Below, one piece after another: positions 1 to 61,299 of a DNA stretch of 64,000 nucleotides (position 1 is its first letter; each line of letters starts with the position of its first letter). This stretch comes from Escherichia coli (GTDB lineage: Bacteria; Pseudomonadota; Gammaproteobacteria; Enterobacterales; Enterobacteriaceae), in NCBI RefSeq assembly GCF_050920415.1, contig NZ_CP169309.1. The stretch is one strand, 5' to 3'. The notes beneath the pieces are model-generated. The model searched no databases and had not been told where the DNA came from. It saw only the letters and a list, made by a program, of their open reading frames with translations. A program made the position numbers and the translations under genes.

Positions 1-21
1 ATTACCCGCTACGCCAGCAGA

Positions 22-684
22 TTAAGTATTTTCCAGATAATGCTTCAGTGTTAAACGCAGTTCCGGGCTCATGCTGTCCAGGTTATTAAATAACCAGCGC
101 AGATAGCCCGGATCGCGTTCGGCAACGTCGGAAACCGCTTTGCCACGGTATTTGCCAAAGGTGAAGGTCGTCATCAACGATGGACGTCCGGTGATATCGG
201 CCATCTGTTCTGCCGTCCAGCCGGAGGTGTTCATAATATCGATAAGCAACGCAGCGGTGATATAACAGTCATACAACGCGCGGTGATGATGCAGGCCCGG
301 CGGCGTCTGTACATTGAGCTTCCGTGTTTTATATAACGCCATATTGCTGTACTTGATCCCTGGCCACAGACGACGGGCCAGTTTCATAGTGCAAATCCAC
401 TCACCGGGCATCTCAGGCAGTACGCGGCGGTCAAAGCTGGCGTTGTGCGCGACATACCATTCACTACCGTAATAGTGCGGGATCACATCTTCAATCCACG
501 GTTTATCGGCGACCATGGCTTCGGTGATGCGATGAATCGCCATCGCCTGTGGACTAATAGGACGATCGGGGCGCACCAGGTGGCTCATGGGGTTGACGAT
601 TTTTCCGTCAATGACATCAACAGAGGCAATCTCAACGATCCCTCCCTGCAAACCGCAGGTTTCTGTATCGATAATGCGCAACAT
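22..684 (-). CDS. exoX: exodeoxyribonuclease X (DnaQ-like 3'-5' exonuclease)
   Basis: ORF 22..738 (-); translation from internal Met MLRIIDTETCGLQGG... matches E. coli ExoX (220 aa) as recalled; start placed at that Met. Confidence 0.9.
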   Translation of the reverse strand: MLRIIDTETCGLQGGIVEIASVDVIDGKIVNPMSHLVRPDRPISPQAMAIHRITEAMVADKPWIEDVIPHYYGSEWYVAHNASFDRRVLPEMPGEWICTMKLARRLWPGIKYSNMALYKTRKLNVQTPPGLHHHRALYDCYITAALLIDIMNTSGWTAEQMADITGRPSLMTTFTFGKYRGKAVSDVAERDPGYLRWLFNNLDSMSPELRLTLKHYLENT

Positions 685-707
685 GGCATGCTCCAGGCCG
701 AAAAAGC

Positions 708-1364
708 CTAGCGTAATGGAATGATATCGCCTTGCCAACCCTGTGATGAACGCTGACCGACTAACAATAATGAACCACGATCGGCGCGAACGATGAGACG
801 ACCATGTTCATCCCATAGTGCACTGTTACCACGGGCATTTGCCATCAGCACGGCAATTGAGTACTGATGTGAAAAAAATTGTAAGCGGCGGGTCGACGCC
901 AGCAGGTCGGGTTCCCCCAGACATTGCCCTGTCGTAAATAGTGAACAGGTCGGATCCATATCCATACCTTGCGGTTGTTCATCGACCACCGTGATGGTTC
1001 TGGAACGACGGCCCAGACATGCACCATGACTCTGATGGTAGATCCCTGGCGTTTTTCGCCACGGTGCGAACACCGCAATTCCACGAATAAAGCGATCGTT
1101 ATATTCAACGGGAAGGCCGGCAATGATGGTCATTCGCCAGGTCGTTGCAGCATAACAAAGCGGGTCTAACAGCGAGAGATCGGGTGGGGCAGGAAGGGCA
1201 CGTCGCGAATAATCACACCCCAGTAAAGAAAGCGATGGAAAAACTAACAGCTGACATTGTTGCCTGGCGGCGGCCCTCACAAACTCCAGATGATGAGCTA
1301 CCTGTTCAGTCAGTGAGGTTGTACGAGGCTCATATTGCGCTGCTGCGACTTTCCAGAACGACAT
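708..1364 (-). CDS. yobB: carbon-nitrogen hydrolase (nitrilase superfamily) protein
   Basis: ORF track 218 aa; position between exoX and holE as in K-12; identity recalled, not searched. Confidence 0.85.
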   Translation of the reverse strand: MSFWKVAAAQYEPRTTSLTEQVAHHLEFVRAAARQQCQLLVFPSLSLLGCDYSRRALPAPPDLSLLDPLCYAATTWRMTIIAGLPVEYNDRFIRGIAVFAPWRKTPGIYHQSHGACLGRRSRTITVVDEQPQGMDMDPTCSLFTTGQCLGEPDLLASTRRLQFFSHQYSIAVLMANARGNSALWDEHGRLIVRADRGSLLLVGQRSSQGWQGDIIPLR

Positions 1365-1465
1365 AATGACTTCCTTTTCAAAATGACTGTAAATTATGGG
1401 TGCGGTTTAGAAAATACTCATAATTTAGCAGGCGTTATGTAAGAAAGTGTAACTCTGTATAAGTT

Positions 1466-1696
1466 TTATTTAAGTTTGGGCTCGTAAGGTAAACGTGACA
1501 GATTGACCGAAGCCAAACGGTGGGCGATAAGCCGCTCGCGAAACCAGCTGCGCAAATGTTCAGGCTGTTCACGTTCAACCGCTTCAGCGATCACCGGCAT
1601 ATTGTAGCGTTCTTTAAATGCCACCCCGGCTGCCGCCAAATCGACATTCACTTTATCCATTTCTGTTTGATCCAGTTTAGCCAGATTCTTCAGCAT
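1466..1696 (-). CDS. holE: DNA polymerase III theta subunit
   Basis: ORF 1466..1783 (-); internal Met [35 protein letters not shown]... gives 76 aa matching HolE. Confidence 0.9.
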
Positions 1697-1834
1697 TCTT
1701 AATCTCCTCATCATTCGCGGGCAAAAGTTACTAAGAGTGAGCCTGGATGGCAAGCCGGAATTGATGATCCTCGACTCAGACATTAGACAAGGTTATGCTC
1801 TGTAAAAAAGTTATTACAAAAAGGAATAGATAAT

Positions 1835-2209
1835 ATGACTTCAACTGCACGCTCCTTTCGCTACGCGCTGGCAATCCTGACCACTACGTTGGTGACACCT
1901 TCCGTCTGGGCACATGCGCATTTAACGCATCAGTATCCTGCGGCAAACGCGCAAGTGACAGCTGCCCCGCAGGCAATCACTTTAAACTTCTCGGAAGGCG
2001 TTGAAACAGGATTCAGTGGTGCAAAAATCACGGGGCCAAAAAACGAAAATATTAAAACATTACCGGCGAAGCGGAATGAGCAGGACCAAAAGCAACTGAT
2101 TGTTCCACTGGCCGATTCGCTGAAACCCGGAACCTACACCGTTGACTGGCATGTTGTTTCGGTGGACGGGCATAAAACGAAAGGGCACTACACCTTTAGC
2201 GTGAAATAA
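1835..2209 (+). CDS. yobA: CopC-family periplasmic copper-binding protein
   Basis: ORF 124 aa with N-terminal signal peptide then HAHL... (mature N-terminal His typical of CopC Cu site). Confidence 0.9.
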   Translation: MTSTARSFRYALAILTTTLVTPSVWAHAHLTHQYPAANAQVTAAPQAITLNFSEGVETGFSGAKITGPKNENIKTLPAKRNEQDQKQLIVPLADSLKPGTYTVDWHVVSVDGHKTKGHYTFSVK

Positions 2210-2212
2210 ATC

Positions 2213-3085
2213 ATGCTGGCGTTTACCTGGATCGCGCTGCGATTTATCCATTTCACCTCGCTGATGCTGGTTTTTGGCTTCGCAATGTACGGTGCCTGGC
2301 TGGCCCCCTTAACGATTCGTCGCTTGCTGACGAAGCGTTTTCTGCGTTTACAACAGCACGCTGCCGTCTGGAGTTTGATCAGTGCCACTGCAATGCTCGC
2401 CGTTCAGGGCGGGTTGATGGGAACGGGATGGTCAGATGTATTTTCGCCAAACATTTGGCAGGCTGTTTTGCAAACGCAGTTTGGTGGCGTCTGGTTATGG
2501 CAAATTGTTCTCGCCCTCGTAACGTTGATCGTCGCCCTTATGCAACCGCGGAATATGCCACGTTTGCTGTTTATGCTCACTACCGCGCAATTTATTCTGC
2601 TGGCGGGAGTCGGGCATGCGACGCTGAATGAAGGGGTAACGGCGAAAATCCATCAGACTAATCACGCGATTCACCTGATCTGTGCGGCGGCGTGGTTTGG
2701 AGGATTACTTCCGGTGCTCTGGTGTATGCAACTCATCAAAGGCCGTTGGCGACACCAGGCTATTCAGGCGCTGATGCGTTTTTCCTGGTGCGGGCATTTT
2801 GCGGTGATCGGCGTACTGGCAAGCGGCGTGCTTAATGCATTGTTGATTACCAGATTTCCCCCCACGCTTACGACTTACTGGGGCCAACTCTTATTGCTCA
2901 AAGCCATCCTGGTGATGATTATGGTGGTCATCGCGCTGGCTAATCGTTATGTTCTTGTACCGCGCATGAGGCAGGATGAAAATCGTGCGGCTCCCTGGTT
3001 TGTGTGGATGACTAAACTCGAATGGGCGATAGGTGCGGTAGTGCTGGTGATCATCAGCCTGCTTGCGACTCTCGAACCTTTTTGA
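2213..3085 (+). CDS. copD: CopD-family inner membrane copper resistance protein
   Basis: ORF 290 aa, polytopic membrane protein, 3 nt after yobA stop (operon); matches YebZ/CopD. Confidence 0.9.
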   Translation: MLAFTWIALRFIHFTSLMLVFGFAMYGAWLAPLTIRRLLTKRFLRLQQHAAVWSLISATAMLAVQGGLMGTGWSDVFSPNIWQAVLQTQFGGVWLWQIVLALVTLIVALMQPRNMPRLLFMLTTAQFILLAGVGHATLNEGVTAKIHQTNHAIHLICAAAWFGGLLPVLWCMQLIKGRWRHQAIQALMRFSWCGHFAVIGVLASGVLNALLITRFPPTLTTYWGQLLLLKAILVMIMVVIALANRYVLVPRMRQDENRAAPWFVWMTKLEWAIGAVVLVIISLLATLEPF

Positions 3086-3097
3086 TGGATTACGAAA

Positions 3098-3439
3098 ATG
3101 ATGAAAAAAAGTATTCTGGCGTTTCTGTTACTCACCAGTTCTGCAGCGGCGCTGGCGGCACCGCAGGTGATTACCGTCAGTCGTTTTGAAGTGGGTAAAG
3201 ACAAATGGGCATTTAACCGCGAAGAGGTGATGCTGACATGCCGACCGGGCCATGCGTTGTATGTTATTAATCCGAGTACCCTCGTGCAGTATCCTTTGAA
3301 CGATATCGCACAAAAGGAAGTCGCCAGCGGGAAGACCAATGCCCAGCCCATTTCGGTGATTCAGATTGATGATCCTAACAATCCAGGTGAAAAAATGAGT
3401 CTGGCACCGTTTATAGAGCGAGCTGAAAAACTCTGTTAA
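3098..3439 (+). CDS. yebY: DUF2511 family secreted protein
   Basis: ORF 113 aa with signal peptide; third gene of yobA-copD-yebY operon. Confidence 0.85.
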
Positions 3440-3470
3440 TTACCTAAAATAGCCTTTTGATTTCCAATAA

Positions 3471-3509
3471 AAAACCGCCTCAGTTCTTTCACCAGAACAG
3501 GCGGTTTTT
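3471..3509. terminator. bidirectional intrinsic terminator hairpin (yebY / RyeA)
   Basis: 10-bp perfect stem AAAACCGCCT...AGGCGGTTTT flanked by A/T runs on both sides. Confidence 0.6.
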
Positions 3510-3596
3510 AACATTTAAGCTGATGACCACCACGCTTTTTATTGACCATTTTGCACGCAAACTGGAAAACCTGGCGTCGTCATCTATTCTTAAAGG

Positions 3597-3699
3597 GCAA
3601 GGCAACTAAGCCTGCATTAATGCCAACTTTTAGCGCACGGCTCTCTCCCAAGAGCCATTTCCCTGGACCGAATACAGGAATCGTGTTCGGTCTCTTTTT
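3597..3699 (+). ncRNA. sdsR: SdsR (RyeB) RpoS-dependent sRNA
   Basis: Sequence GCAAGGCAACTAAGCCTGCATTAATGCC...CCGAATACAGGAATCGTGTTCGGTCTCTTTTT matches SdsR as recalled; sigmaS-like -10 TCTATTCTT at 3582..3590; 3' terminator hairpin plus T-run. Confidence 0.7.
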
Positions 3700-3833
3700 A
3701 TCTGTTAAAAGCCAGAAGCATTCCCTTCGCTGACTTTATAGTCAACCATAACACACACTCTACTGTCTGAGTCCAGCGTTTTTTAACATTCTTGTTAAGA
3801 TTATGTGATCTTTAGCGCGGGAGGAAAATATTG

Positions 3834-5140: not shown

Positions 5141-6586
5141 TCAGGCGTTACCTGTAAAAAGTTTCCCGTCCCGCACCAGTTCACGCGGGTAGCTGTTTTT
5201 CAGTCGCGAACCAATCCGTTTGGCTAAACCAATCGGCTGATGCTGGAAAGTAACCAATACATCATCCGCTACTGGCGCGGCTTGCGGGTAAACATCGCGC
5301 CCGCGATACCATTCTTCCGCTTCCTGCGGTGTCAGTTCAAAAGCGTTCACATTGTCGGGGGAGGCAAGGGCAATAACCGCTTCATGCTGCCAGCGATAAC
5401 CTTTATTATGTGTTTCGGCAAGTTTAATCCCCAACCGAGAAAATCGGACTTTACCGATCAAGGCTTCAATGCCCACCGGGAACAACCACAGTTCTTTGTC
5501 GCGTTGCCAGAGTCGCAGGTTTCCATCCCAGTTTAAGCCAACACTTGCAGCCGCCTGACGAATTTGACCGGCTTCGCGATCTTTCACCGGGCTAAACGGA
5601 AAATTGCCCACTTTGTATTTTGGGGCGGGTAAGACGGGGATCGCCTGAGTTTTACGCAGACGAGCAACGAAGAAGCCTTCGCAGTCGTAAATTTGTGGGA
5701 AAACATGCAAAAAGCCTTCTTCGGTCAGCGCCTTATTTGCACCAGGGAAGAGATCGCCAAGCGGTAAAAACTCTACTGCGTCGGGGTAAGTCTCTTTCAG
5801 CCACCGGCAGACGGCTTCATTTTCTTCCTGGTTTAAGGTACAGGTCGAGTAAACCAGCGTACCGCCAAGGCGTAATGCATGAAAGGCGCTGTCGATCAGT
5901 TCCCGTTGGGTAGCTGCGATTTCCTGATTGCTTTCTGGTGACCAGTTTTTTAGCGCATCGGGATCTTTACGCACCACGCCTTCACCGGAGCAGGGAGCGT
6001 CCAGCAAAATGGCATCGAACATTTCTGGCACTGCCGCACCAAATACACGGCCATCAAAATGCGTGAGCGCAACATTACGGATGCCACAGCGGCTGATATT
6101 GGCATGTAACACTTTTACCCGACTGGCGGAAAACTCATTGGCAAGGATCGCCCCTTCGTTATTCATCCGCGCGGCAATTTGCGTCGTTTTGGAGCCGGGC
6201 GCGGCAGCGACATCCATCACCCGCTGTGGTGCATTACCGTCAGCAAACAAGGCGGCGACGGGCAACATTGAACTGGCTTCCTGAATATAAAACAGGCCAC
6301 TTAAATGCTCGGCGGTACTACCCAATGGCAAGGCATCTTCATCGTTGCGTTCAATCCAGAAACCTTCTTCACACCACGGAATTGGCGTAAGCGTCCAGCC
6401 ATAAGGGGCGGTTAATTGCAGGAAATCAGCAACGGAGATTTTCAGCGTATTAACGCGAATACTACGGCGCAACGGGCGCTGACAGGCGGCAAGAAAATCA
6501 TCAAATGAGAGCGTCGAAGGCATTGCTTCGCGCATTTGTGTCAGAAAGGCGTCCGGGAAATAAACGGTGTGTTGGGCCACGAGCAT
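5141..6586 (-). CDS. rsmF: 16S rRNA m5C1407 methyltransferase
   Basis: ORF 481 aa; SAM-dependent MTase with PUA-like C-terminus; K-12 annotation 479 aa may use GTG at codon 3. Confidence 0.9.
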
Positions 6587-17997: not shown

Positions 17998-18036
17998 CTA
18001 GTTTAATGACATAAGGTAGGTGAAACGGAGATTGGA

Positions 18037-18180
18037 GTGAAAAAGTTTCGATGGGTCGTTCTGGTTGTCGTGGTGTTGGCTTGCTTGCTGCTTTGGGCGC
18101 AGGTATTCAACATGATGTGCGATCAGGATGTACAATTTTTCAGCGGAATTTGTGCCATTAACCAGTTTATCCCGTGGTGA
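18037..18180 (+). CDS. mgrB: PhoQ-inhibitory small membrane protein MgrB
   Basis: 47-codon GTG-initiated [50 protein letters not shown] read by eye; absent from ORF track (<60 aa). Confidence 0.9.
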
Positions 18181-18542: not shown

Positions 18543-19211
18543 TCCTTCCTCAATCTTGAGTAACCCCGTCGTTGAAGGGTTACTCAATTCATCCTGATTA
18601 TACGCACTGTCATGGTGCAACTGCTTCAAATTAAAACTCTGGTCTGACTTCAAATAATTATCATATTATTTATTTGCGTAACGGGATATCAGAAAAAGAT
18701 ATTTAGCCCATTAATTTATTAGGATGTTTACATCGGATTTGTGATTAAGCGTGTTATTATTTATTAGCGAAACGTTTCTCTCTTGATTTTTTTGCGCATT
18801 CATCAATTTTTCTTATTTTAAATTTACAATACCTTTGGCGATTGACTTCTCTTTGGGGTGATTGATAGCCGTTAACTGACTGTTTTATGAGAAAAAGTGA
18901 TATAACTTTTTATTCATTGCATAGCAGAAAATGTGATATTGCACGCACTATGTAATAACTTCTCCCATTGGCCTGGAACAACTGAACTTATTGAACTATG
19001 TTAGAAAATACGTCAGTTTAAGTATCTGCCTGAACTGGCAAGGTTAAGCACAATGATATATCGGCGCGTATTCCGTTGCATAAGTGTGCAAAAAAAGTGG
19101 AAGACGTATCGAGATTTGTGCGTCTGATCGAGACATGTTTAAAAATGGCTTGCCATAATTAACGTTGTATGTGATAACAGATTTCGGGTTAAACGAGGTA
19201 CAGTTCTGTTT

Positions 19212-19355
19212 ATGTGTGGCATTTTCAGTAAAGAAGTCCTGAGTAAACACGTTGACGTTGAATACCGCTTCTCTGCCGAGCCTTATATTGGTGCCTCATG
19301 CAGTAATGTGTCAGTTTTATCTATGTTATGCCTGCGGGCGAAGAAAACAATCTAA
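19212..19355 (+). CDS. yobF: small protein YobF
   Basis: 47-codon [50 protein letters not shown] read by eye, 12 nt upstream of cspC; absent from ORF track. Confidence 0.8.
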
Positions 19356-19367
19356 GGAATTTTTCAA

Positions 19368-19577
19368 ATGGCAAAGATTAAAGGTCAGGTTAAGTGGTTC
19401 AACGAGTCTAAAGGTTTTGGCTTCATTACTCCGGCTGATGGCAGCAAAGACGTGTTCGTACACTTCTCCGCTATCCAGGGTAATGGCTTCAAAACTCTGG
19501 CTGAAGGTCAGAACGTTGAGTTCGAAATTCAGGACGGCCAGAAAGGTCCGGCAGCTGTTAACGTAACAGCTATCTGA
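19368..19577 (+). CDS. cspC: cold-shock-domain protein CspC
   Basis: ORF 69 aa [20 protein letters not shown]... with RNP motifs. Confidence 0.97.
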
Positions 19578-19622
19578 TCGAATCCACTGATCTGAAGTGT
19601 GAATACGCTTCAATCTCGCTAT

Positions 19623-19649
19623 AAAGCCTCGTCGAATGCGAGGCTTTTT
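19623..19649 (+). terminator. intrinsic terminator of cspC
   Basis: stem AAAGCCTCG / CGAGGCTTT followed by TT. Confidence 0.8.
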
Positions 19650-19742
19650 ACTTTGCTTTATCTTCGCTCCTGGCATTCGGATATTTGCCCGCCGCGTGAT
19701 TCGCGTTACACTTGCGGCCTTTAGTATCCTGCCGGAGTTGTC

Positions 19743-33567: not shown

Positions 33568-35478
33568 GTGACGGACGATTTTGCACCAGATGGTCAGCTG
33601 GCGAAAGCAATACCAGGCTTTAAGCCGCGAGAACCACAGCGACAGATGGCGGTAGCCGTCACCCAGGCGATAGAAAAAAGCCAGCCGCTGGTGGTGGAAG
33701 CCGGAACCGGTACGGGCAAAACCTACGCTTACCTGGCCCCTGCGCTGCGGGCGAAAAAGAAAGTCATTATCTCGACCGGCTCAAAAGCGTTGCAGGATCA
33801 GCTCTACAGCCGCGATTTGCCAACGGTCTCAAAGGCGTTGAAATACACGGGCAACGTGGCGTTGCTGAAAGGGCGCTCAAACTATCTCTGCCTCGAACGA
33901 CTGGAACAGCAGGCGCTGGCGGGCGGCGATTTGCCGGTACAAATCTTAAGCGATGTGATCCTGCTGCGCTCCTGGTCCAATCAGACGGTAGATGGCGATA
34001 TCAGCACCTGCGTCAGCGTGGCGGAAGATTCGCAGGCGTGGCCGTTGGTCACCAGCACCAACGACAACTGTCTTGGCAGCGATTGCCCGATGTATAAAGA
34101 TTGCTTTGTGGTTAAAGCACGCAAAAAAGCGATGGACGCCGATGTGGTGGTGGTAAACCATCATCTGTTTCTGGCGGATATGGTGGTGAAAGAGAGTGGA
34201 TTTGGCGAACTGATCCCGGAAGCTGACGTGATGATCTTCGACGAAGCCCACCAACTGCCTGACATTGCCAGCCAGTATTTTGGTCAGTCATTCTCCAGTC
34301 GACAACTGCTCGACCTGGCAAAAGACATCACCATCGCCTACCGCACCGAATTAAAAGACACCCAGCAGTTACAAAAGTGCGCCGACCGCCTTGCCCAGAG
34401 CGCGCAGGATTTTCGCCTTCAATTAGGTGAGCCAGGTTATCGTGGCAACCTGCGCGAACTGTTAGCTAATCCGCAAATTCAGCGAGCATTTTTACTGCTC
34501 GATGACACCCTGGAACTTTGTTATGACGTGGCGAAACTGTCGCTGGGGCGTTCCGCCTTGCTGGATGCGGCATTTGAGCGCGCCACGTTGTATCGTACGC
34601 GGCTGAAACGGCTAAAAGAGATCAATCAGCCGGGCTACAGCTACTGGTACGAATGCACTTCGCGCCATTTTACTCTGGCACTCACGCCGCTCAGCGTGGC
34701 GGATAAATTCAAAGAATTAATGGCGCTAAAACCAGGTAGCTGGATCTTTACCTCAGCAACGCTGTCGGTGAATGACGATCTGCATCATTTTACCTCGCGG
34801 CTTGGCATTGAACAGGCAGAGTCGTTGCTGTTACCCAGCCCGTTTGATTACAGCCGCCAGGCGTTACTCTGTGTGCCGCGCAACCTGCCGCAAACCAATC
34901 AACCGGGCTCCGCACGGCAACTGGCGGCAATGTTGCGACCGATCATCGAAGCTAACAACGGTCGTTGTTTTATGCTTTGTACCTCGCACGCCATGATGCG
35001 CGATCTGGCCGAGCAGTTCCGCGCTACCATGACGCTTCCCGTTTTGTTGCAGGGGGAAACCAGCAAAGGGCAACTGTTGCAGCAATTTGTCAGCGCCGGT
35101 AACGCGCTGCTTGTGGCAACCAGCAGCTTCTGGGAAGGGGTGGATGTGCGTGGCGATACATTGTCATTGGTGATTATCGACAAGTTGCCGTTTACCTCAC
35201 CGGATGATCCACTATTAAAAGCGCGCATGGAAGATTGCCGTTTGCGCGGAGGCGACCCGTTCGATGAAGTACAGCTGCCGGATGCGGTCATTACTCTCAA
35301 GCAGGGGGTAGGGCGACTGATTCGCGACGCCGACGATCGAGGGGTTTTGGTGATTTGCGACAATCGGCTGGTGATGCGCCCTTACGGCGCGACGTTTCTC
35401 GCCAGTCTGCCGCCAGCGCCGCGCACCCGTGACATTGCCCGTGCGGTTCGTTTCCTTGCGATACCATCCTCCAGGTAA
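33568..35478 (+). CDS. yoaA: DinG-family ATP-dependent DNA helicase YoaA
   Basis: ORF 636 aa; Walker A AGTGTGKT, DEAH box (FDEAHQL), Fe-S cysteine cluster (CLGSDCPMYKDC). Confidence 0.9.
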   Translation: MTDDFAPDGQLAKAIPGFKPREPQRQMAVAVTQAIEKSQPLVVEAGTGTGKTYAYLAPALRAKKKVIISTGSKALQDQLYSRDLPTVSKALKYTGNVALLKGRSNYLCLERLEQQALAGGDLPVQILSDVILLRSWSNQTVDGDISTCVSVAEDSQAWPLVTSTNDNCLGSDCPMYKDCFVVKARKKAMDADVVVVNHHLFLADMVVKESGFGELIPEADVMIFDEAHQLPDIASQYFGQSFSSRQLLDLAKDITIAYRTELKDTQQLQKCADRLAQSAQDFRLQLGEPGYRGNLRELLANPQIQRAFLLLDDTLELCYDVAKLSLGRSALLDAAFERATLYRTRLKRLKEINQPGYSYWYECTSRHFTLALTPLSVADKFKELMALKPGSWIFTSATLSVNDDLHHFTSRLGIEQAESLLLPSPFDYSRQALLCVPRNLPQTNQPGSARQLAAMLRPIIEANNGRCFMLCTSHAMMRDLAEQFRATMTLPVLLQGETSKGQLLQQFVSAGNALLVATSSFWEGVDVRGDTLSLVIIDKLPFTSPDDPLLKARMEDCRLRGGDPFDEVQLPDAVITLKQGVGRLIRDADDRGVLVICDNRLVMRPYGATFLASLPPAPRTRDIARAVRFLAIPSSR

Positions 35479-36983: not shown

Positions 36984-37055
36984 AATATTATGTTAACGGC
37001 ATGTATATCATTTGGGGTTGCGATGACGACGAACACGCATTTTAGAGGTGAAGAA

Positions 37056-38741
37056 TTGAAGAAGGTTTGGCTTAACCGTTATCCCGCGGACGTTCCGACG
37101 GAGATCAACCCTGACCGTTATCAATCTCTGGTAGATATGTTTGAGCAGTCGGTCGCGCGCTACGCCGATCAACCCGCGTTTGTGAATATGGGGGAGGTGA
37201 TGACCTTCCGCAAACTGGAAGAACGCAGTCGCGCGTTTGCCGCTTATTTGCAACAAGGGTTGGGACTGAAGAAAGGCGATCGCGTTGCGTTGATGATGCC
37301 TAATTTATTGCAATATCCGGTGGCGCTGTTTGGCATTTTGCGTGCCGGGATGATTGTCGTAAACGTTAACCCGTTGTATACCCCGCGTGAACTTGAGCAT
37401 CAGCTTAACGATAGCGGCGCATCGGCGATTGTTATCGTGTCTAACTTTGCCCACACTCTGGAAAAAGTGGTTGATAAAACCGCCGTTCAGCACGTAATTC
37501 TGACCCGTATGGGCGATCAGCTATCTACGGCAAAAGGCACGGTAGTCAATTTCGTTGTTAAATACATCAAGCGTCTGGTGCCGAAATACCATCTGCCAGA
37601 TGCCATCTCATTTCGTAGCGCCCTGCACAACGGCTACCGGATGCAGTACGTCAAACCCGAACTGGTGCCGGAAGATTTAGCTTTCCTGCAATACACCGGC
37701 GGTACCACTGGTGTGGCGAAAGGCGCGATGCTGACTCACCGCAATATGCTGGCGAACCTGGAACAGGTTAACGCGACTTATGGGCCGCTGTTGCATCCGG
37801 GCAAAGAGCTGGTGGTGACGGCGCTGCCGCTGTATCACATTTTTGCACTGACCATTAACTGCCTGCTGTTTATTGAACTGGGTGGGCAGAACTTGCTTAT
37901 CACTAACCCGCGCGATATTCCGGGGTTGGTAAAAGAGTTAGCGAAATATCCGTTTACCGCGATAACCGGCGTTAACACCTTGTTCAATGCGTTGCTGAAC
38001 AATAAAGAGTTCCAGCAGCTGGATTTCTCCAGTCTGCATCTTTCTGCAGGCGGTGGTATGCCTGTTCAACAAGTGGTGGCTGAACGTTGGGTGAAACTGA
38101 CCGGACAGTATCTGCTGGAAGGTTATGGCCTGACCGAGTGTGCGCCGCTGGTCAGCGTTAACCCGTATGATATTGATTATCATAGTGGTAGCATCGGTTT
38201 GCCGGTGCCGTCGACGGAAGCCAAACTGGTGGATGATGATGATAACGAAGTACCACCGGGTCAACCGGGTGAGCTTTGTGTCAAAGGACCGCAGGTGATG
38301 CTGGGCTACTGGCAGCGTCCGGATGCCACTGATGAAATCATCAAAAACGGTTGGCTACACACTGGCGACATTGCCGTAATGGACGAAGAAGGTTTCTTAC
38401 GCATCGTTGATCGCAAAAAAGACATGATTCTGGTTTCCGGTTTTAACGTCTATCCCAACGAGATTGAAGATGTCGTCATGCAGCATCCTGGCGTACAGGA
38501 AGTCGCGGCTGTTGGCGTACCTTCCGGCTCAAGTGGTGAAGCGGTGAAAATCTTCGTTGTGAAAAAAGATCCATCGCTTACCGAAGAGTCACTGGTGACT
38601 TTTTGCCGCCGTCAGCTCACGGGCTACAAAGTACCGAAGCTGGTGGAGTTTCGTGATGAGTTACCGAAATCTAACGTCGGAAAAATTTTGCGACGAGAAT
38701 TACGTGACGAAGCGCGCGGCAAAGTGGACAATAAAGCCTGA
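37056..38741 (+). CDS. fadD: long-chain fatty acid-CoA ligase
   Basis: ORF 36990..38741; known TTG start at 37056 giving (M)[15 protein letters not shown]..., 561 aa; AMP-binding motif [16 protein letters not shown]. Confidence 0.95.
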
Positions 38742-38760
38742 GCGTTAAGTCAGTCGTCAG

Positions 38761-38787
38761 ACGCCGGTTAATCCGGCGTTTTTTTTG
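38761..38787 (+). terminator. intrinsic terminator of fadD
   Basis: stem ACGCCGG / CCGGCGT, loop TTAAT, followed by TTTTTTTT. Confidence 0.85.
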
Positions 38788-38810
38788 ACGCCCACTAAAG
38801 AGAATACAAT

Positions 38811-39938
38811 TTGAATTACCAAATGATTACCACGGACGATGCGCTGGCTTCTTTGTGTGAAGCTGTCCGTGCCTTTCCGGCGATAGCCCTGGATACTGAA
38901 TTTGTTCGTACGCGCACCTATTACCCGCAGCTGGGTCTAATTCAACTTTTCGATGGCGAGCATCTGGCGCTAATTGATCCTCTCGTGATCACCGACTGGT
39001 CACCGCTGAAAGCGATCCTGCGCGATCCGTCCATCACAAAATTTCTCCATGCAGGCAGTGAAGATCTGGAAGTGTTCCTCAATGTCTTTGGCGAATTACC
39101 ACAACCCCTGATTGACACGCAAATCCTTGCTGCCTTCTGCGGACGCCCGATGTCATGGGGTTTTGCTTCCATGGTGGAAGAGTATTCCGGCGTTACGCTG
39201 GACAAGAGTGAATCGCGCACCGACTGGCTGGCCAGACCGCTGACTGAACGTCAGTGTGAATACGCAGCGGCGGATGTCTGGTATCTGTTACCGATCACCG
39301 CAAAGCTTATGGTAGAAACGGAGGCCTCCGGCTGGCTACCTGCGGCGCTGGATGAATGCCGCCTGATGCAAATGCGTCGTCAGGAAGTCGTTGCGCCGGA
39401 AGATGCCTGGCGTGATATCACCAATGCCTGGCAGTTACGCACACGCCAACTGGCCTGTCTGCAACTGTTAGCCGATTGGCGACTGCGTAAGGCGCGGGAG
39501 CGCGATCTGGCGGTGAACTTTGTCGTGCGTGAAGAGCATTTGTGGTCGGTAGCGCGTTATATGCCGGGAAGTTTAGGCGAACTGGACAGCCTGGGCTTAT
39601 CCGGTAGCGAAATCCGCTTTCACGGTAAAACGCTGCTGGCGCTGGTGGAAAAAGCGCAGACATTGCCGGAAGAGGCCTTACCGCAGCCGATGCTTAACCT
39701 GATGGACATGCCGGGTTATCGTAAAGCGTTTAAAGCGATTAAGTCGCTGATTACTGACGTGAGCGAAACACACAAGATCAGCGTCGAATTGCTGGCATCG
39801 CGTCGGCAAATCAACCAGCTGCTGAACTGGCACTGGAAACTGAAACCGCAGAACAATTTGCCGGAGCTGATTTCCGGCTGGCGTGGTGAGCTGATGGCGG
39901 AAGCATTACACAATTTATTGCAGGAATATCCACAGTAA
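38811..39938 (+). CDS. rnd: ribonuclease D
   Basis: ORF 375 aa; codon at 38811 is TTG (known UUG start of RNase D); DEDDy exonuclease plus HRDC domains. Confidence 0.95.
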   Translation: MNYQMITTDDALASLCEAVRAFPAIALDTEFVRTRTYYPQLGLIQLFDGEHLALIDPLVITDWSPLKAILRDPSITKFLHAGSEDLEVFLNVFGELPQPLIDTQILAAFCGRPMSWGFASMVEEYSGVTLDKSESRTDWLARPLTERQCEYAAADVWYLLPITAKLMVETEASGWLPAALDECRLMQMRRQEVVAPEDAWRDITNAWQLRTRQLACLQLLADWRLRKARERDLAVNFVVREEHLWSVARYMPGSLGELDSLGLSGSEIRFHGKTLLALVEKAQTLPEEALPQPMLNLMDMPGYRKAFKAIKSLITDVSETHKISVELLASRRQINQLLNWHWKLKPQNNLPELISGWRGELMAEALHNLLQEYPQ

Positions 39939-42168: not shown

Positions 42169-43779
42169 TCAGTTGTCGCCTTTGAATACGGTTCCAGCAG
42201 GAAGCACTGGCGCTTTTCCCGGGGCTTCAACCGGTGTCTGCGGGAGATAATGTTCAACTTGATGAGCTGGAATGTCGGCGTAATCCTGTTTCAGCCAGCG
42301 AATAAATCCGCCGACTTTCACCAGTAAAATGGCGAGGAAGGGAAGGGCAGTGAGGACGACGGTAGTTTTCATTGTTTCCAGCGAAGCACCGGTAAACAAG
42401 ATGGAAAGCGGGATCAGAGTGATCACTACGCACCAGAACAGACGCAGCCCACGGTCAGGATCGTCACCTTCCTGGAGATTACGCGTGCTGGTCGCCGCCA
42501 TGGTGTAAGCCACCGCATCCATATGCGAGGCGAGGAAGATAATCATCACGCCCAGGTATGCGGCGAGGAACAATTTACCGGCTGGCAACGACATCAGAAC
42601 TTGCTGCACAGCTGTTTCGCCGCCCAGTGTTTCCAGCACCTGTGGGACGTTGATTACGCCATTGATAAACTGATGAATGGCATAGCTTTCCATTACACCG
42701 AAGAAGAACCAGCAACCGACAGTGCTGCCGAGGATCAGTCCCCAGATAACTTCTTTAATCTTTCGACCGCGCGAAACGCGGGTGACAAACATTGCTACGC
42801 CAGGGGTGTATGAGATCCACCACAGCCAGTAGAAAACGGTCCAGTTGCGGGTAAATGAACCATCGCCAAGCGGATCGGTGAATAAGCTCATTTGCAGGAA
42901 GTTTTGCGTGGTCAGGCCGATGGCATTGATGATGCTGTTGGTAATAAATTCGGTTGGACCGACAATCAGCACCAGTAATGGCAGCAGGAATGCGCCCCAG
43001 CCAACCATTTTGCTTAGACGTTGCAAACCGTTGTTGATACCAATCCACGAGCTTAGGCAAAAAATGCCGCCGGAAAGCAGGATCACAAATGCCTGTACGG
43101 TAAAGTTATCGGGTAAACCGGTCAGCGCGGAAAGCCCACGGGTAAAGGTTGCTGCGGTGACAACAAGGGAAATGGTCAGTGCGCCGACAGTGGCGATCAG
43201 GAACATCAAATCGACCAGTTTCCCCCACGGGCCTTGCGGGCGAACGCCGGTAATAGCAGCAATAATGCCGGAAAGGCTCAGCCCTTTATTTTTCCGCACA
43301 TGAAAGTGATAAGCCATGATTAATGAGGCCAGCGTATAAGTTGCCCAGGCGCTGATGCCCCAGTGGAAGAAGGAGTAGGGAACGCTAAATTCGAGTGCCT
43401 GTTGTGAACGCGGTGCGATATTTAATCCAGGCGTTTGATAATAATAGGCCCATTCAGCAACCCCCCAATAAAGCGTAGAAGAACCTAAACCTGCACAAAT
43501 AAACATAAACAGCCAGGAGAGCGTGCTGTATTCCGGTTTTCCTTCGCCAAGACGAATATTGCCGTATTTACTGGTGGCTAAATAAATCACCAGTCCCATT
43601 GCCAGCAAAACCAATACCTGTACGGCGGAACCTAACGTACGCGTGACAAAAGTGTATATAGCGTTTGCCGCGTCGGCCGATTGTTGTGGGAAAAGGCTTA
43701 ATGCAGCTGCGATGAAAAGAATGGCCACCAGGCTGATGCTTATCAACGGCACATCTTTTTTCTTAACATTGCTCATCAT
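42169..43779 (-). CDS. yeaV: BCCT-family transporter
   Basis: ORF 536 aa with AGGAG RBS 7 nt upstream of ATG at 43779; K-12 annotation as recalled is shorter, so start uncertain. Confidence 0.85.
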
Positions 43780-43982
43780 GAGTCATCTCCTGGGCATAAA
43801 AGCCCGCCTCTGGCTTTTGCCAGTTGTAATTATTTGCAGGGTATGAGTTGTATGTTGTGTTTAACAAATTGATTATTTACATGTTACATAAATTAAACAA
43901 TTAAGAATACGGAAAGCCATAAAACACGAAACGGAAACAATAAAAGGTGAAATGACGCAGGTTATTTACTGCAAAGAACGAA

Positions 43983-46197: not shown

Positions 46198-46905
<708 letters not shown>

Positions 46906-48285: not shown

Positions 48286-49311
48286 TCAGGAATGTAGCAC
48301 TGAATGCGCGACAAAAGGTGTTTTCTGTTTGTGTTTTTTCTCCTGATACATCGCGATATCGGCAGCATGCAGGGCGCTGTCTGCATCGGTCGTTTCAGGA
48401 TCGACTTCTACTATGCCAAGACTGGCACCAGGATAATACAAATCAACATCACCTAAGTGATATTCTCCGCGTATTTGCTGTTGAATACGTTCTCGCAGCG
48501 ATGGAATATCCGCATTCTCATTGTTCAGTGAAACAACCAAAAACTCATCACCGCCGAGACGACCAATAACTTCGCCATTTTGCTGGAGCGTATTAAGGCG
48601 CTCGCCAACCTGAATAAGAAACAGATCGCCACTATTATGACCAAAACGATCATTGATTAATTTGAAGTTATCCAGATCGATAAATGCGATCATTATCTTA
48701 TGGTTAAGATGCCGGGCGAGGGAAAACAGCGTCGTCAGATTTTCAAAAATCGCCCGCCGATTTGGTAACCCGGTTAACGAGTCGGTATACGATTGCGCAA
48801 TCAGCGCGGCATTGGCTTCGCGCAGCTGTTCTACCAGCGCCTCTTTTTGAATATATTGTGCAATCAGTCCGGCGAATAACTGCAAAACCTGTTCCGCGCG
48901 TTCACTCCACTGGCGCTTCTCACTGCTGGCGGCGCAAAGCGTGCCATAGAATGATCCATCCGGTAAGTGAATTGGCGTGCTCAGAAATGTGGTGATGCCA
49001 AGATTGCGTGCCGCAATACAGTCGCCCCAACGGTCGGGGACTTCATCGCTGAAAAAGCAGTTTTCATCAATGGCGCGTTTGCATAACGAGTAATCCCACG
49101 AGACGGTAAAATTCTCCGGGATGTGCATTTTCTGGCTGTTACGGGCAAACATTATATGCTGCAGGCGCGCTTCGACATCCACTTTGGTCAGGTAGGTTGA
49201 TTCCATATCAGTGACCATTTCCAGCATCTCCAGAAGCTGTCGGACCAGACTTTCCAGTGACTGTTCTTTGGCAAGGGATTGCGAGACGCGGGCGATAATC
49301 TGATCTGACAC
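48286..49311 (-). CDS. dgcP: diguanylate cyclase DgcP
   Basis: ORF 48286..49440; GTG start giving (M)SDQIIARVSQ..., 341 aa; GAF-like N-domain and GGDEF motif RLGGDEFLVV. Confidence 0.9.
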   Translation of the reverse strand: MSDQIIARVSQSLAKEQSLESLVRQLLEMLEMVTDMESTYLTKVDVEARLQHIMFARNSQKMHIPENFTVSWDYSLCKRAIDENCFFSDEVPDRWGDCIAARNLGITTFLSTPIHLPDGSFYGTLCAASSEKRQWSERAEQVLQLFAGLIAQYIQKEALVEQLREANAALIAQSYTDSLTGLPNRRAIFENLTTLFSLARHLNHKIMIAFIDLDNFKLINDRFGHNSGDLFLIQVGERLNTLQQNGEVIGRLGGDEFLVVSLNNENADIPSLRERIQQQIRGEYHLGDVDLYYPGASLGIVEVDPETTDADSALHAADIAMYQEKKHKQKTPFVAHSVLHS

Positions 49312-49493
49312 GAAACAACTCCAGGATACGGCGGGTAAATGCTGATTATTTAATCTTTGCAGGCATGATAAAACATCATCAACAAAGATGAAACAAGGCG
49401 TAATATGATTTGAGTGAATGTAATAAAAATAGTGCTGCAAAACAAAACGATACCGCGATACTCTAAGCCTGGATAAATATGTGAGATCAATAA

Positions 49494-60552: not shown

Positions 60553-61299
60553 GTGACCAAACTCAAACTTCTGGCACTTGGAGTGCTTATCGCAACGTCT
60601 GCAGGCGTAGCGCACGCTGAAGGTAAATTTTCCCTGGGCGCAGGCGTAGGTGTCGTTGAACACCCATATAAAGATTACGATACCGATGTTTACCCAGTAC
60701 CGGTAATCAACTATGAAGGCGATAACTTCTGGTTCCGTGGCTTAGGTGGTGGTTACTACCTGTGGAATGACGCAACGGATAAACTTTCAATTACCGCTTA
60801 CTGGTCGCCGCTTTACTTCAAAGCTAAAGACAGTGGCGATCACCAAATGCGTCACCTGGATGACCGTAAGAGCACCATGATGGCTGGTCTGTCTTATGCT
60901 CACTTTACCCAGTACGGTTACCTGCGTACCACCCTGGCTGGCGATACCCTGGATAACAGCAACGGCATCGTCTGGGATATGGCCTGGTTGTATCGTTACA
61001 CCAACGGTGGCCTGACCGTGACTCCGGGTATTGGTGTGCAGTGGAACAGCGAAAACCAGAACGAATACTATTATGGCGTATCGCGCAAAGAGTCTGCGCG
61101 CAGCGGTCTGCGTGGCTATAACCCGAACGACAGCTGGAGCCCTTACCTGGAGCTAAGTGCCAGCTACAACTTCCTCGGTGACTGGAGTGTTTACGGTACC
61201 GCGCGCTACACCCGTCTGTCTGATGAAGTTACTGACAGCCCAATGGTGGATAAATCCTGGACTGGCCTGATTTCTACCGGGATCACCTACAAATTCTGA
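60553..61299 (+). CDS. mipA: MltA-interacting outer membrane protein
   Basis: ORF 248 aa with signal peptide; beta-barrel-like ending in aromatic residue. Confidence 0.95.
   Translation: MTKLKLLALGVLIATSAGVAHAEGKFSLGAGVGVVEHPYKDYDTDVYPVPVINYEGDNFWFRGLGGGYYLWNDATDKLSITAYWSPLYFKAKDSGDHQMRHLDDRKSTMMAGLSYAHFTQYGYLRTTLAGDTLDNSNGIVWDMAWLYRYTNGGLTVTPGIGVQWNSENQNEYYYGVSRKESARSGLRGYNPNDSWSPYLELSASYNFLGDWSVYGTARYTRLSDEVTDSPMVDKSWTGLISTGITYKF

Follow-up and report, generated by a model that had tools for sequence, protein, structure and literature searches.

Where does translation of rnd, the gene for RNase D, begin in this stretch of DNA: at a TTG codon (38811–38813, plus strand), or at the in-frame ATG that forms codon 5 of the same reading frame? 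The same question attaches to several of its neighbors. The window, the whole 64,000-nucleotide stretch that was analyzed, covers the exoX–gapA region of the Escherichia coli chromosome, which lies at ~1.86–1.93 Mb in K-12 and is reversed relative to it. A first-pass annotation had proposed that five genes of the window open on non-ATG codons, TTG for rnd and fadD and GTG for leuE, mgrB, and dgcP. The five positions that it gave are all correct; each codon is in frame with the named gene and opens a full-length open reading frame. Mapping the curated starts of K-12 MG1655 onto the window returned the same five codons, with equal reading frame lengths. The five codons are genuine GTG or TTG starts of ordinary E. 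coli genes; they have been documented before, and there is nothing new in them.

Two features of the local sequence distinguish the five codons. An analysis of ribosome binding site spacing, which had been suggested together with the proposal, found the flagged start to be the one with the best-placed Shine–Dalgarno (SD) match among the in-frame alternatives in all five genes, at SD energies of −7.1 (fadD), −6.6 (mgrB), −6.5 (leuE), −5.9 (dgcP), and −2.9 kcal/mol (rnd). The flagged codon is also the position with the least local structure relative to the in-frame alternatives, again in all five genes. Between the start codon of rnd, leuE, or mgrB and the preceding upstream stop there is no in-frame ATG, GTG, or TTG, and the only upstream in-frame candidate for dgcP is a TTG at 49440, which would add 43 codons.

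Published initiation-site profiling did not shift the starts to ATG codons: INRI-seq peaks are present at all five non-ATG codons, in each case 12–18 nt from the first base of the flagged start (PMC9825163, Table S2). The assay is performed in vitro on synthetic transcripts that carry only 30 nt of the native 5′ UTR (PMC9825163), and its peaks show an ability to initiate, not the extent of in vivo use. Ribo-RET values were taken from the INRI-seq table that reproduces them, and the profiling considered here comes from work in vitro or on K-12. In cells grown in rich medium, Ribo-RET gave no peak for four of the five genes (rnd, fadD, leuE, and mgrB), presumably due to low expression, and the same four genes have no rows in the examined part of the TRAINSPOTTER table. 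For rnd and fadD, the sequence context was further compared among 80 Enterobacteriaceae loci, of which 79 are counted for rnd and 75 for fadD.

The fadD start is a TTG at 37056–37058 (plus strand), which opens a CDS of 561 codons plus stop (37056–38741, plus strand). The window protein is identical to K-12 FadD (b1805, UniProt LCFA_ECOLI, 561 aa; WP_000758422.1), and the TTG, the SD, and the 5′ UTR are alike in the two. Among the orthologues, codon 1 is TTG at 57 of the 75 loci and GTG at the remaining 18, and never ATG, CTG, or TTA. Constraint sets in sharply at the TTG, with entropies of 0.09, 0.04, and 0.87 at the three codon positions downstream of the start, and a weak period-3 signal is also detectable upstream of it. 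INRI-seq coverage at the TTG amounts to 234–335 CPM. Literature searches on a TTG start of fadD, or on an extended N-terminus, found nothing relevant.

Two in-frame ATG codons lie upstream, one 11 codons (37023–37025, plus strand) and one 22 codons (36990–36992, plus strand) before the TTG, and they are the sources of the 572-aa and 583-aa FadD versions, respectively; both versions reflect a different choice of start on DNA that is the same as in the K-12-type gene. The distal ATG was rejected as the opening of a conserved frame, as indels of 1–2 nt between it and ATG 37023 break the frame in orthologues. The proximal ATG deserves closer attention. FadD could be translated wholly or partly from ATG 37023, which would yield a 572-aa protein with 11 additional N-terminal residues, either replacing the 561-aa form or alongside it. 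This candidate start is invariant and always 33 nt upstream of the TTG in the 75 loci, is preceded by a GGGG motif, and is followed by no in-frame stop before the TTG in any of 56 unique sequences. In the intervening stretch, variation affects every one of the eight third positions that can be tested and 7 of the 16 remaining positions (p=0.009, one-sided, or ~0.03 when three frames are allowed for). Conserved RNA structure was rejected as an explanation for the conserved 5′ UTR block around this ATG, RNAalifold returning 0 compensatory pairs at −6.5 kcal/mol. The 572-aa FadD is widespread in databases, and the INRI-seq constructs do not include ATG 37023; because the transcripts carry so short a native leader, the assay is blind to an upstream fadD start.

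Against these observations stands the behavior of the TTG itself, which alternates only with GTG and never varies at its third base, as expected for a start and not for an internal leucine codon. The strongest SD, AGAGGTG (37044–37050, plus strand), lies 5 nt before the TTG and is invariant in all loci, whereas a mere 3 nt separate the GGGG motif from ATG 37023. The ten codons upstream of the TTG have accumulated 8 synonymous and 27 nonsynonymous substitutions, compared to 16 and 5 downstream. Conservation of ATG 37023 is by itself weak evidence, because the whole fadD promoter and UTR, a FadR-box-like region, is highly conserved. Both the curated K-12 and the automated annotation use the TTG, and the TTG alone initiates strongly in vitro. 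N-terminal sequencing of purified FadD, reportedly carried out by Black et al. in 1992, is likewise counted against the 572-aa form. Synthesis of a 572-aa FadD from ATG 37023 is, on balance, unlikely. Use of the AUG within the conserved element GGGGYUGNGAUGACGACGAA, whether as a second start giving a 572-aa proteoform or as an initiation or standby site that modulates the weak UUG, is to be regarded as similarly doubtful. If true, the dual start of fadD would be a conserved one, and the supposed mis-annotation at 572 aa would be partly right; the upstream AUG is a small and cheaply testable loose end.

Returning to rnd, the TTG at 38811 opens a CDS of 375 codons plus stop (38811–39938, plus strand). 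It matches the curated K-12 start, and the 375-aa form is the one used by curated K-12, by UniProt RND_ECOLI, and by PDB 1YT3, chain A of which begins MNYQMITT. The window and K-12 rnd (b1804) do not differ in codon, context, hairpin, or U8 tract, and the 375-aa window protein shares ~99% identity with K-12 RNase D and with PDB 1YT3, with few strain changes such as G59V and no functional difference; the automated RefSeq call for the lineage of the window begins four codons later. The two starts predict different N-termini, MNYQMITTDDALASLCEAVR (or NYQM...) for the TTG form and MITTDDALASLCEAVR for the ATG form. The relevant passages of PMC7769764 and PMC5934652 describe a UUG start for rnd accompanied by a U-rich enhancer.

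Could rnd instead truly start at the ATG (38823–38825, plus strand), giving a 371-aa protein and leaving the TTG four codons upstream within an untranslated leader? The ATG is the more efficient initiator codon, and it is the choice of automated annotation in a strain that matches the window at 99.99% identity, in LF82, and in 60/60 evenly sampled RefSeq E. coli genomes as annotated by the automated RefSeq pipeline (PGAP); in none of these 60 does a CDS cover the TTG. The 371-aa form is a RefSeq “MULTISPECIES” protein, carried by at least 1000 contigs. No SD lies within 3–12 nt of the ATG, however, while the TTG is preceded at 7 nt by a weak SD-like AGAGA (38799–38803, plus strand; −2.9 kcal/mol) that is conserved in nearly all 79 loci. 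The comparative pattern also contradicts an ATG start. Codon 1 is exclusively TTG (75/79 loci) or GTG (4/79), and never ATG, CTG, or TTA, in a set that was collected with six peptide patterns, one of them MNYQMITT, and which consequently carries a mild ascertainment bias. Across 70 unique sequences, codons 2–4 (N-Y-Q) vary in a purely synonymous third-position pattern, and no constraint is seen upstream of the TTG; the entropies at the three codon positions pass from a flat 0.76, 0.72, and 0.83 upstream to 0.00, 0.14, and 0.94 at codons 2–4, so that coding-type constraint sets in sharply at the TTG. In one species codon 5 is ATT and not ATG.

Profiling separates the two codons as well. The INRI-seq signal at rnd (13–26 CPM, present in 5/5 replicates) lies 12–18 nt from the TTG, and a start at the ATG would have placed it at 24–30 nt; rnd is absent from the INRI-seq table of alternative start sites (Table S3). 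The literature on rnd gives a UUG start. N-terminal sequencing work on RNase D was reportedly performed by Zhang and Deutscher in 1988, and the UUG codon of K-12 rnd with its U-rich enhancer is attributed to their reports of 1988, 1989, and 1992. An rnd start at ATG 38823 is very improbable, and the ATG is most likely an internal methionine codon of a gene that begins at the TTG.

The first codons of rnd and fadD share a further property, in that their third base never varies; internal leucine codons are under no such restriction in these alignments, one of them being read as CTG (43), TTG (8), CTC (7), CTT (7), and TTA (3).

The weak SD of rnd directs attention to the fadD–rnd junction. A run of eight T (38779–38786, plus strand) lies between a hairpin and the rnd SD, and at least six U are kept in the loci inspected. 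The hairpin is G+C-rich (38759–38781, plus strand; 9 pairs, 6 of them G-C), folds at −22.5 kcal/mol (z = −3.5), and constitutes both the intrinsic terminator of fadD and the 3′ end of the small RNA sroD (Rfam RF00370; 38700–38785, plus strand). The sroD covariance model matches at this junction with 115 bits, compared to a gathering score of 50, and the RNA overlaps the fadD 3′ end and terminator. The U-rich tract is described as a translational enhancer of rnd by Zhang and Deutscher (1992), as cited in passages of PMC7769764 and PMC5934652. From this published work we infer that the tract just upstream of rnd, which also forms the tail of both sroD and the fadD terminator, may compensate for the combination of a weak UUG and a weak SD. 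Conservation of the U-run is confounded as evidence for such an enhancer, since the same run is the terminator tail.

The three GTG starts rest on a different mix of evidence. The leuE GTG (46267–46269, plus strand; 212 codons) follows the SD AGAGGTT at 46257–46263, is kept in 4/4 other genera, and shows 179–403 CPM in INRI-seq; the upstream sequence of its orthologues has diverged, and in two loci an in-frame stop occurs 5–6 codons upstream. The mgrB GTG (18037–18039, plus strand; 47 codons) follows the SD CGGAGA at 18026–18031 and shows 162–243 CPM. It is kept in 3/4 loci, those of Salmonella, Cronobacter, and a Klebsiella sp., again with diverged upstream sequence, the exception being a GTA at the aligned start in one K. 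aerogenes strain. For leuE and mgrB, an onset of coding constraint at the GTG is seen qualitatively, and no N-terminal peptide data were found for either. A figure legend in PMC11429745 places a Ribo-RET peak, under low Mg, at the start of MgrB.

For dgcP (yeaP), the GTG (49309–49311, minus strand; 341 codons) is preceded by the SD GGAGT at 49318–49322. The four comparison loci anchored on leuE do not contain dgcP, and its start rests on the SD placement together with published peptide and profiling data. The INRI-seq signal is marginal (5–8 CPM, in 2/5 replicates), and a Ribo-RET peak is also present. The portion of Table S1 in PMC13245402 that covers dgcP lists the N-terminal peptides MSDQIIAR and SDQIIAR in addition to Ribo-RET and INRI flags. 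Methionine from a GTG arises only by initiation, and the methionine-bearing peptide therefore places initiation at this codon.

The five genes do not exhaust the non-ATG starts of the window: the entries of the first-pass list are right, but the list is incomplete, omitting six further GTG starts. [quoted passage not shown] The rsmF start (6578–6580, minus strand) is known from annotation only, with neither an INRI-seq nor a Ribo-RET peak, and yoaA (33568–33570, plus strand) combines a strong SD (−10.7 kcal/mol) with no initiation peak. In total, INRI-seq peaks accompany 9/11 of the non-ATG starts of the window, and Ribo-RET support is added for 3/11. A third TTG start, for yeaV, was considered and rejected, as the true ATG at 43779 is present here; in K-12 a 224-bp deletion removes that ATG and leaves an apparent TTG start, at which INRI-seq detects no initiation. 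The K-12 yeaV “TTG start” is a deletion artefact and constitutes a curation point.

Non-ATG starts account for 11/69 complete CDSs (16%), and E. coli as a whole uses AUG, GUG, and UUG at 83, 14, and 3%, that is, 17% non-ATG (10.1101/063800). The 11 starts observed compare to 11.7 expected (P(X>=11)=0.64), and the two TTG starts to 2.1 expected; non-ATG starts are not enriched in the window, where they are as frequent as in the genome at large. That the window is unusually rich in such starts, or clusters them, for a biological reason such as coordinated low expression of the neighbors fadD and rnd is hardly credible: these two adjacent, co-oriented genes, 1.7 kb apart, do carry two of the rare TTG starts, but the observed counts are close to expectation, an adjacent TTG–TTG pair is expected in ~6% of windows of this size in a comparison that was picked after seeing the data, and the two genes have unrelated functions and a terminator in between.

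Taken together, the five flagged codons are almost certainly ordinary near-cognate (GUG/UUG) bacterial initiation codons, at which an SD match 3–7 nt upstream would position the 30S subunit and initiator fMet-tRNA would read the codon with a first-position mismatch, so that the protein would still begin with methionine. All five genes belong to the genome-wide class of near-cognate initiation recognized by Ribo-RET, INRI-seq, and N-terminomics, and do not differ from it, rsmF and yoaA being without an initiation signal so far; proteome-wide, N-terminomics has confirmed 50 GTG and 10 TTG database starts. Initiation at GUG or UUG is probably several-fold less efficient than at AUG, with reported yields 6–8 fold lower for UUG (PMC3592434) or 10–100% of AUG for GUG and UUG (10.1101/063800), and may help to set a low or tunable output. 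That this lower efficiency is the reason for keeping the codons is suggested by the literature. Like the functionally selected GTG of lacI in Enterobacteriaceae (PMC11445065), the non-ATG starts of rnd and fadD are conserved across genera and never replaced by ATG, and this retention suggests, at the level of sequence comparison, selection for a weak start; unlike for lacI, the regulatory purpose is one that we infer.

The claim that ATG-only calling mis-sets these N-termini is borne out insofar as the errors are real and common, but extension to an upstream ATG applies to fadD only. Such calling truncates rnd, leuE, mgrB, and dgcP by 4, 57, 25, and 28 codons, respectively. FadD circulates in public collections at three lengths, 561, 572, and 583 aa, with at least 1000 contigs carrying each of them, and throughout the automated RefSeq annotations of E. 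coli the supported 375-aa RNase D start is displaced by the 371-aa call. These errors are passed on to users, in N-terminal tagging, structural constructs, proteomics databases, and start-codon statistics. The practical value of these starts is curation; their scientific weight is small, because ~17% of E. coli genes open on GUG or UUG and because the UUG of rnd has been a textbook case of translational control since 1988–1992.

Direct reading of the window confirmed all five non-ATG starts proposed in the first-pass annotation, each opening the frame of its named gene: TTG for rnd (38811, plus strand, 375 codons) and fadD (37056, plus, 561 codons), and GTG for leuE (46267, plus, 212 codons), mgrB (18037, plus, 47 codons) and dgcP, also called yeaP (49311, minus, 341 codons). 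Mapping all curated K-12 starts onto the window identified these five as the curated K-12 starts and revealed that the list, correct as far as it went, had omitted six further GTG starts: rsmF (6578–6580, minus), manX (24755, minus), sdaA (29871, minus), nudL (30633, minus), yoaA (33568–33570, plus) and mipA (60553, plus). Non-ATG codons thus begin 11 of the 69 complete coding sequences (16%; nine GTG and two TTG). Published E. coli usage of 83/14/3% for AUG/GUG/UUG (10.1101/063800) predicts 11.7 non-ATG starts, 2.1 of them TTG, and we therefore find no enrichment in the window (P(X≥11)=0.64). An adjacent TTG–TTG pair such as fadD–rnd is expected by chance in ~6% of such windows; the non-ATG starts of this window are not statistically unusual.

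Genome matches place the window in the exoX–yobB–holE–…–pphA–…–mgrB–…–fadD–rnd–…–leuE–dgcP–…–gapA region, which lies reversed at ~1.86–1.93 Mb in K-12. A 4.5-kb query around rnd/fadD matched 5,425 of 5,426 complete E. coli genomes, with 100% identity to strain MFDS1022581; positions 3669–64000 align to that chromosome at 99.99% identity with one 1-nt gap, and positions 1–3700 match ~42 kb further back. In the closest sequenced strain (NZ_CP169399.1), a ~42 kb prophage bearing baseplate, tail-fibre and recombinase genes sits at the equivalent of ~3669–3700, inside the bidirectional SdsR/RyeA sRNA locus (RyeA, 3559–3703, minus; SdsR/RyeB, 3600–3699, plus), and is absent from the window. The ~32 bp common to both flanks of the insertion suggest an attachment-site duplication. 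The 1-nt gap falls downstream of ~60,100, as starts through yeaG (60117) map unshifted and those of mipA, yeaE and yeaD are shifted; mipA (60553–61299, plus) is intact in the window, encoding 248 aa from its GTG, and is annotated as a frameshifted pseudogene in the 99.99% identical reference strain. A match to the cspA-thermoregulator (Rfam, 136 bits) at 19192–19652 (plus) spans yobF–cspC, a locus at which naming is inconsistent (cspE in automated annotation, cspC in K-12).

Retapamulin profiling and N-terminal proteomics, the experiments that the first-pass annotation had named as tests of these starts, are both already published and support them. INRI-seq profiles retapamulin-stalled initiating ribosomes in vitro on synthetic transcripts carrying 30 nt of native 5′ UTR and 51 codons, and calls a start if two or more of five replicates show a peak of ≥5 CPM at a distance of 12–18 nt, counted from the first base of the start codon as annotated (PMC9825163). 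Signal is present at all five starts (PMC9825163 Table S2): rnd (start 1887991; 16.4, 26.4, 13.5, 19.8 and 24.3 CPM), fadD (335, 270, 322, 288 and 234), leuE (403, 283, 272, 179 and 206), mgrB (241, 162, 243, 209 and 191) and yeaP/dgcP (8.1, 5.3, 0, 0 and 0, with an in vivo Ribo-RET peak of 7.5). Initiation at the downstream rnd ATG would produce a peak 24–30 nt from the TTG, outside the calling range, and the full INRI-seq table of alternative start sites lists neither rnd nor fadD. MgrB initiation is additionally marked by a Ribo-RET peak under low Mg (PMC11429745), and the N-terminal peptides MSDQIIAR and SDQIIAR are reported for dgcP (TRAINSPOTTER N-terminomics table, PMC13245402); initiation at the GTG is the only possible origin of the peptide Met at that codon. 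Across the window, nine of the 11 non-ATG starts have an INRI-seq peak, and three (dgcP, sdaA and manX) a Ribo-RET peak as well; the rsmF and yoaA GTG codons have neither, annotation being the sole basis for these two starts.

The ribosome binding site analysis, likewise put forward at first pass, favored the flagged codon at each of the five genes: relative to every in-frame alternative, it has the best-paired, properly spaced Shine-Dalgarno (SD) sequence and the least local structure. The SD sequences are AGAGGUG for fadD (−7.1 kcal/mol, spacing 5), AGAGGUU for leuE (−6.5 kcal/mol), CGGAGA for mgrB (−6.6 kcal/mol) and GGAGU for dgcP (−5.9 kcal/mol). That of rnd, AGAGA, is weak (−2.9 kcal/mol, spacing 7), and the competing rnd ATG at 38823 has none at all; the rsmF SD is also weak (−2.8 kcal/mol).

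We queried conservation using one genome per species, obtaining 80 Enterobacteriaceae loci with rnd (protein identity 75–99%; as a caveat, MNYQMITT was itself among the six peptide patterns used for collection), of which 75 also contained the fadD start. At the position aligned to the rnd start, 75 loci carry TTG and four carry GTG, and at that aligned to the fadD start, 57 carry TTG and 18 carry GTG; neither ATG nor a synonymous Leu codon occurs at either position in these 75–79 species. Because no such constraint is seen at internal Leu codons of this alignment (for example, CTG 43, TTG 8, CTC 7, CTT 7 and TTA 3), the conserved positions are starts rather than internal Leu or Val codons. Codon-position entropy at rnd is flat ahead of the start (0.76/0.72/0.83) and 0.00/0.14/0.94 over codons 2–4 (Asn-Tyr-Gln; AAT/AAC, TAC/TAT and CAA/CAG), demonstrating that translation spans the four codons left out by the ATG call; the codon-5 ATG is itself replaced by ATT in one species. 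Downstream of the fadD start, the corresponding values are 0.09/0.04/0.87. The leuE GTG is kept in Salmonella, another Enterobacteriaceae species, Kosakonia and Rosenbergiella, with unrelated upstream sequence, synonymous downstream changes and, in two loci, an in-frame stop 5–6 codons upstream. The mgrB GTG and a GGAG are kept in Salmonella, Cronobacter and a Klebsiella species. In Klebsiella aerogenes CP166143.1, GTA (434–436) aligns with the mgrB GTG, and the deposited annotation places the start at a CTG lying 11 codons further upstream, giving a 58-aa protein; judged from the sequence, this may be a start-loss allele. Inactivation of mgrB in Klebsiella confers colistin resistance. Further 58-aa MgrB entries exist for Lelliottia and Citrobacter.

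Among the five genes, fadD alone has in-frame ATGs ahead of its start, one at 37023 (+11 codons) and another at 36990 (+22 codons). The former is invariant in all 75 loci, always exactly 33 nt upstream of the TTG, within the conserved block GGGGYTGNGATGACGACGAA of the fadD 5′ UTR (37013–37034, plus; GGGGTTGCGATGACGACGAAC), and none of the 56 unique sequences has an in-frame stop between the two codons. Translation from this ATG would be in keeping with a weak period-3 signal (eight of eight testable third positions vary, vs seven of 16 others; one-sided p=0.009, ~0.03 allowing for three frames), but the substitutions are mostly nonsynonymous (8 synonymous/27 nonsynonymous vs 16/5 downstream of the TTG). 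We found no covarying RNA structure that accounts for the block, and the INRI-seq fadD construct left out ATG 37023. Since the TTG clearly acts as the fadD start, ATG 37023 could at most serve as an additional, minor start or have a regulatory role, either of which we consider improbable.

Plain near-cognate initiation is the best explanation for the five starts: the SD would position the 30S subunit and fMet-tRNA would read GUG or UUG, leaving Met at the protein N-terminus, with efficiency expected to be several-fold below that of AUG. Published estimates place UUG 6–8 fold below AUG (PMC3592434), and GUG and UUG at 10–100% of AUG (10.1101/063800). Selection for weak non-ATG starts has been argued for lacI and other regulators (PMC11445065); rnd and fadD are likewise never ATG in the 75–79 species, a pattern that would fit such selection. 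Two reviews citing Zhang & Deutscher 1992 describe rnd mRNA as having a UUG and a U-rich translational enhancer (PMC7769764, PMC5934652). A G+C-rich hairpin (38759–38781, plus) followed by a run of eight T (38779–38786) precedes the rnd TTG by 25 nt. The sRNA sroD (38700–38785, plus; Rfam RF00370, 115 bits), absent from both RefSeq records inspected, overlaps the final 40 nt of fadD together with the fadD terminator, stopping 25 nt short of the rnd TTG; one hairpin with its U-run is thus at once the intrinsic terminator of fadD, the 3′ end of sroD and the U-rich enhancer reported for rnd.

The first-pass claim that ATG-only calling mis-sets these N-termini holds in that the errors are real, but extension to an upstream ATG applies to fadD only. 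Between the preceding stop and the start codon, rnd, leuE and mgrB contain no in-frame ATG, GTG or TTG, and dgcP has a single TTG, 43 codons upstream; the effect of ATG-only calling on rnd, leuE, mgrB and dgcP is therefore truncation, by 4, 57, 25 and 28 codons, respectively. The original observation was correct but incomplete, and its interpretation partly right. Extended and truncated calls both occur in databases: RNase D, the rnd product, is listed at two lengths (375 and 371 aa) and FadD at three (561, 572 and 583 aa), with at least 1000 contigs for every form. For both proteins, N-terminal sequencing is reported in primary papers. In the window-matching strain, the RefSeq pipeline PGAP starts rnd at ATG 38823, four codons downstream of the TTG (371 aa). 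No coding sequence covered the TTG in any of 60 RefSeq genomes, sampled at even spacing from 2,149 with the exact 35-mer around it; among controls, annotated LF82 rnd begins 12 nt past the TTG and the curated K-12 coding sequence does overlap it. The RefSeq ATG call is systematic, and conflicts with curated K-12, UniProt, the crystallised RNase D (PDB 1YT3, the 375-residue MNYQMITT form), the comparative evidence and INRI-seq.

A further TTG start, that of yeaV, proved to be a K-12 peculiarity found in the K-12 annotation only. In the window, yeaV (536 aa; 5′ end at 43614–43874, minus) is intact and begins with ATG 43779; relative to it, K-12 MG1655 carries a 224-bp deletion (~43651–43874) that removes the SD, this ATG and ~43 codons. 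The K-12 TTG annotation (481 aa), at which INRI-seq detects zero initiation signal, is a makeshift call that accommodates the truncation of the gene. The biology of these starts is already known; the practical output is annotation corrections for rnd, fadD and K-12 yeaV.
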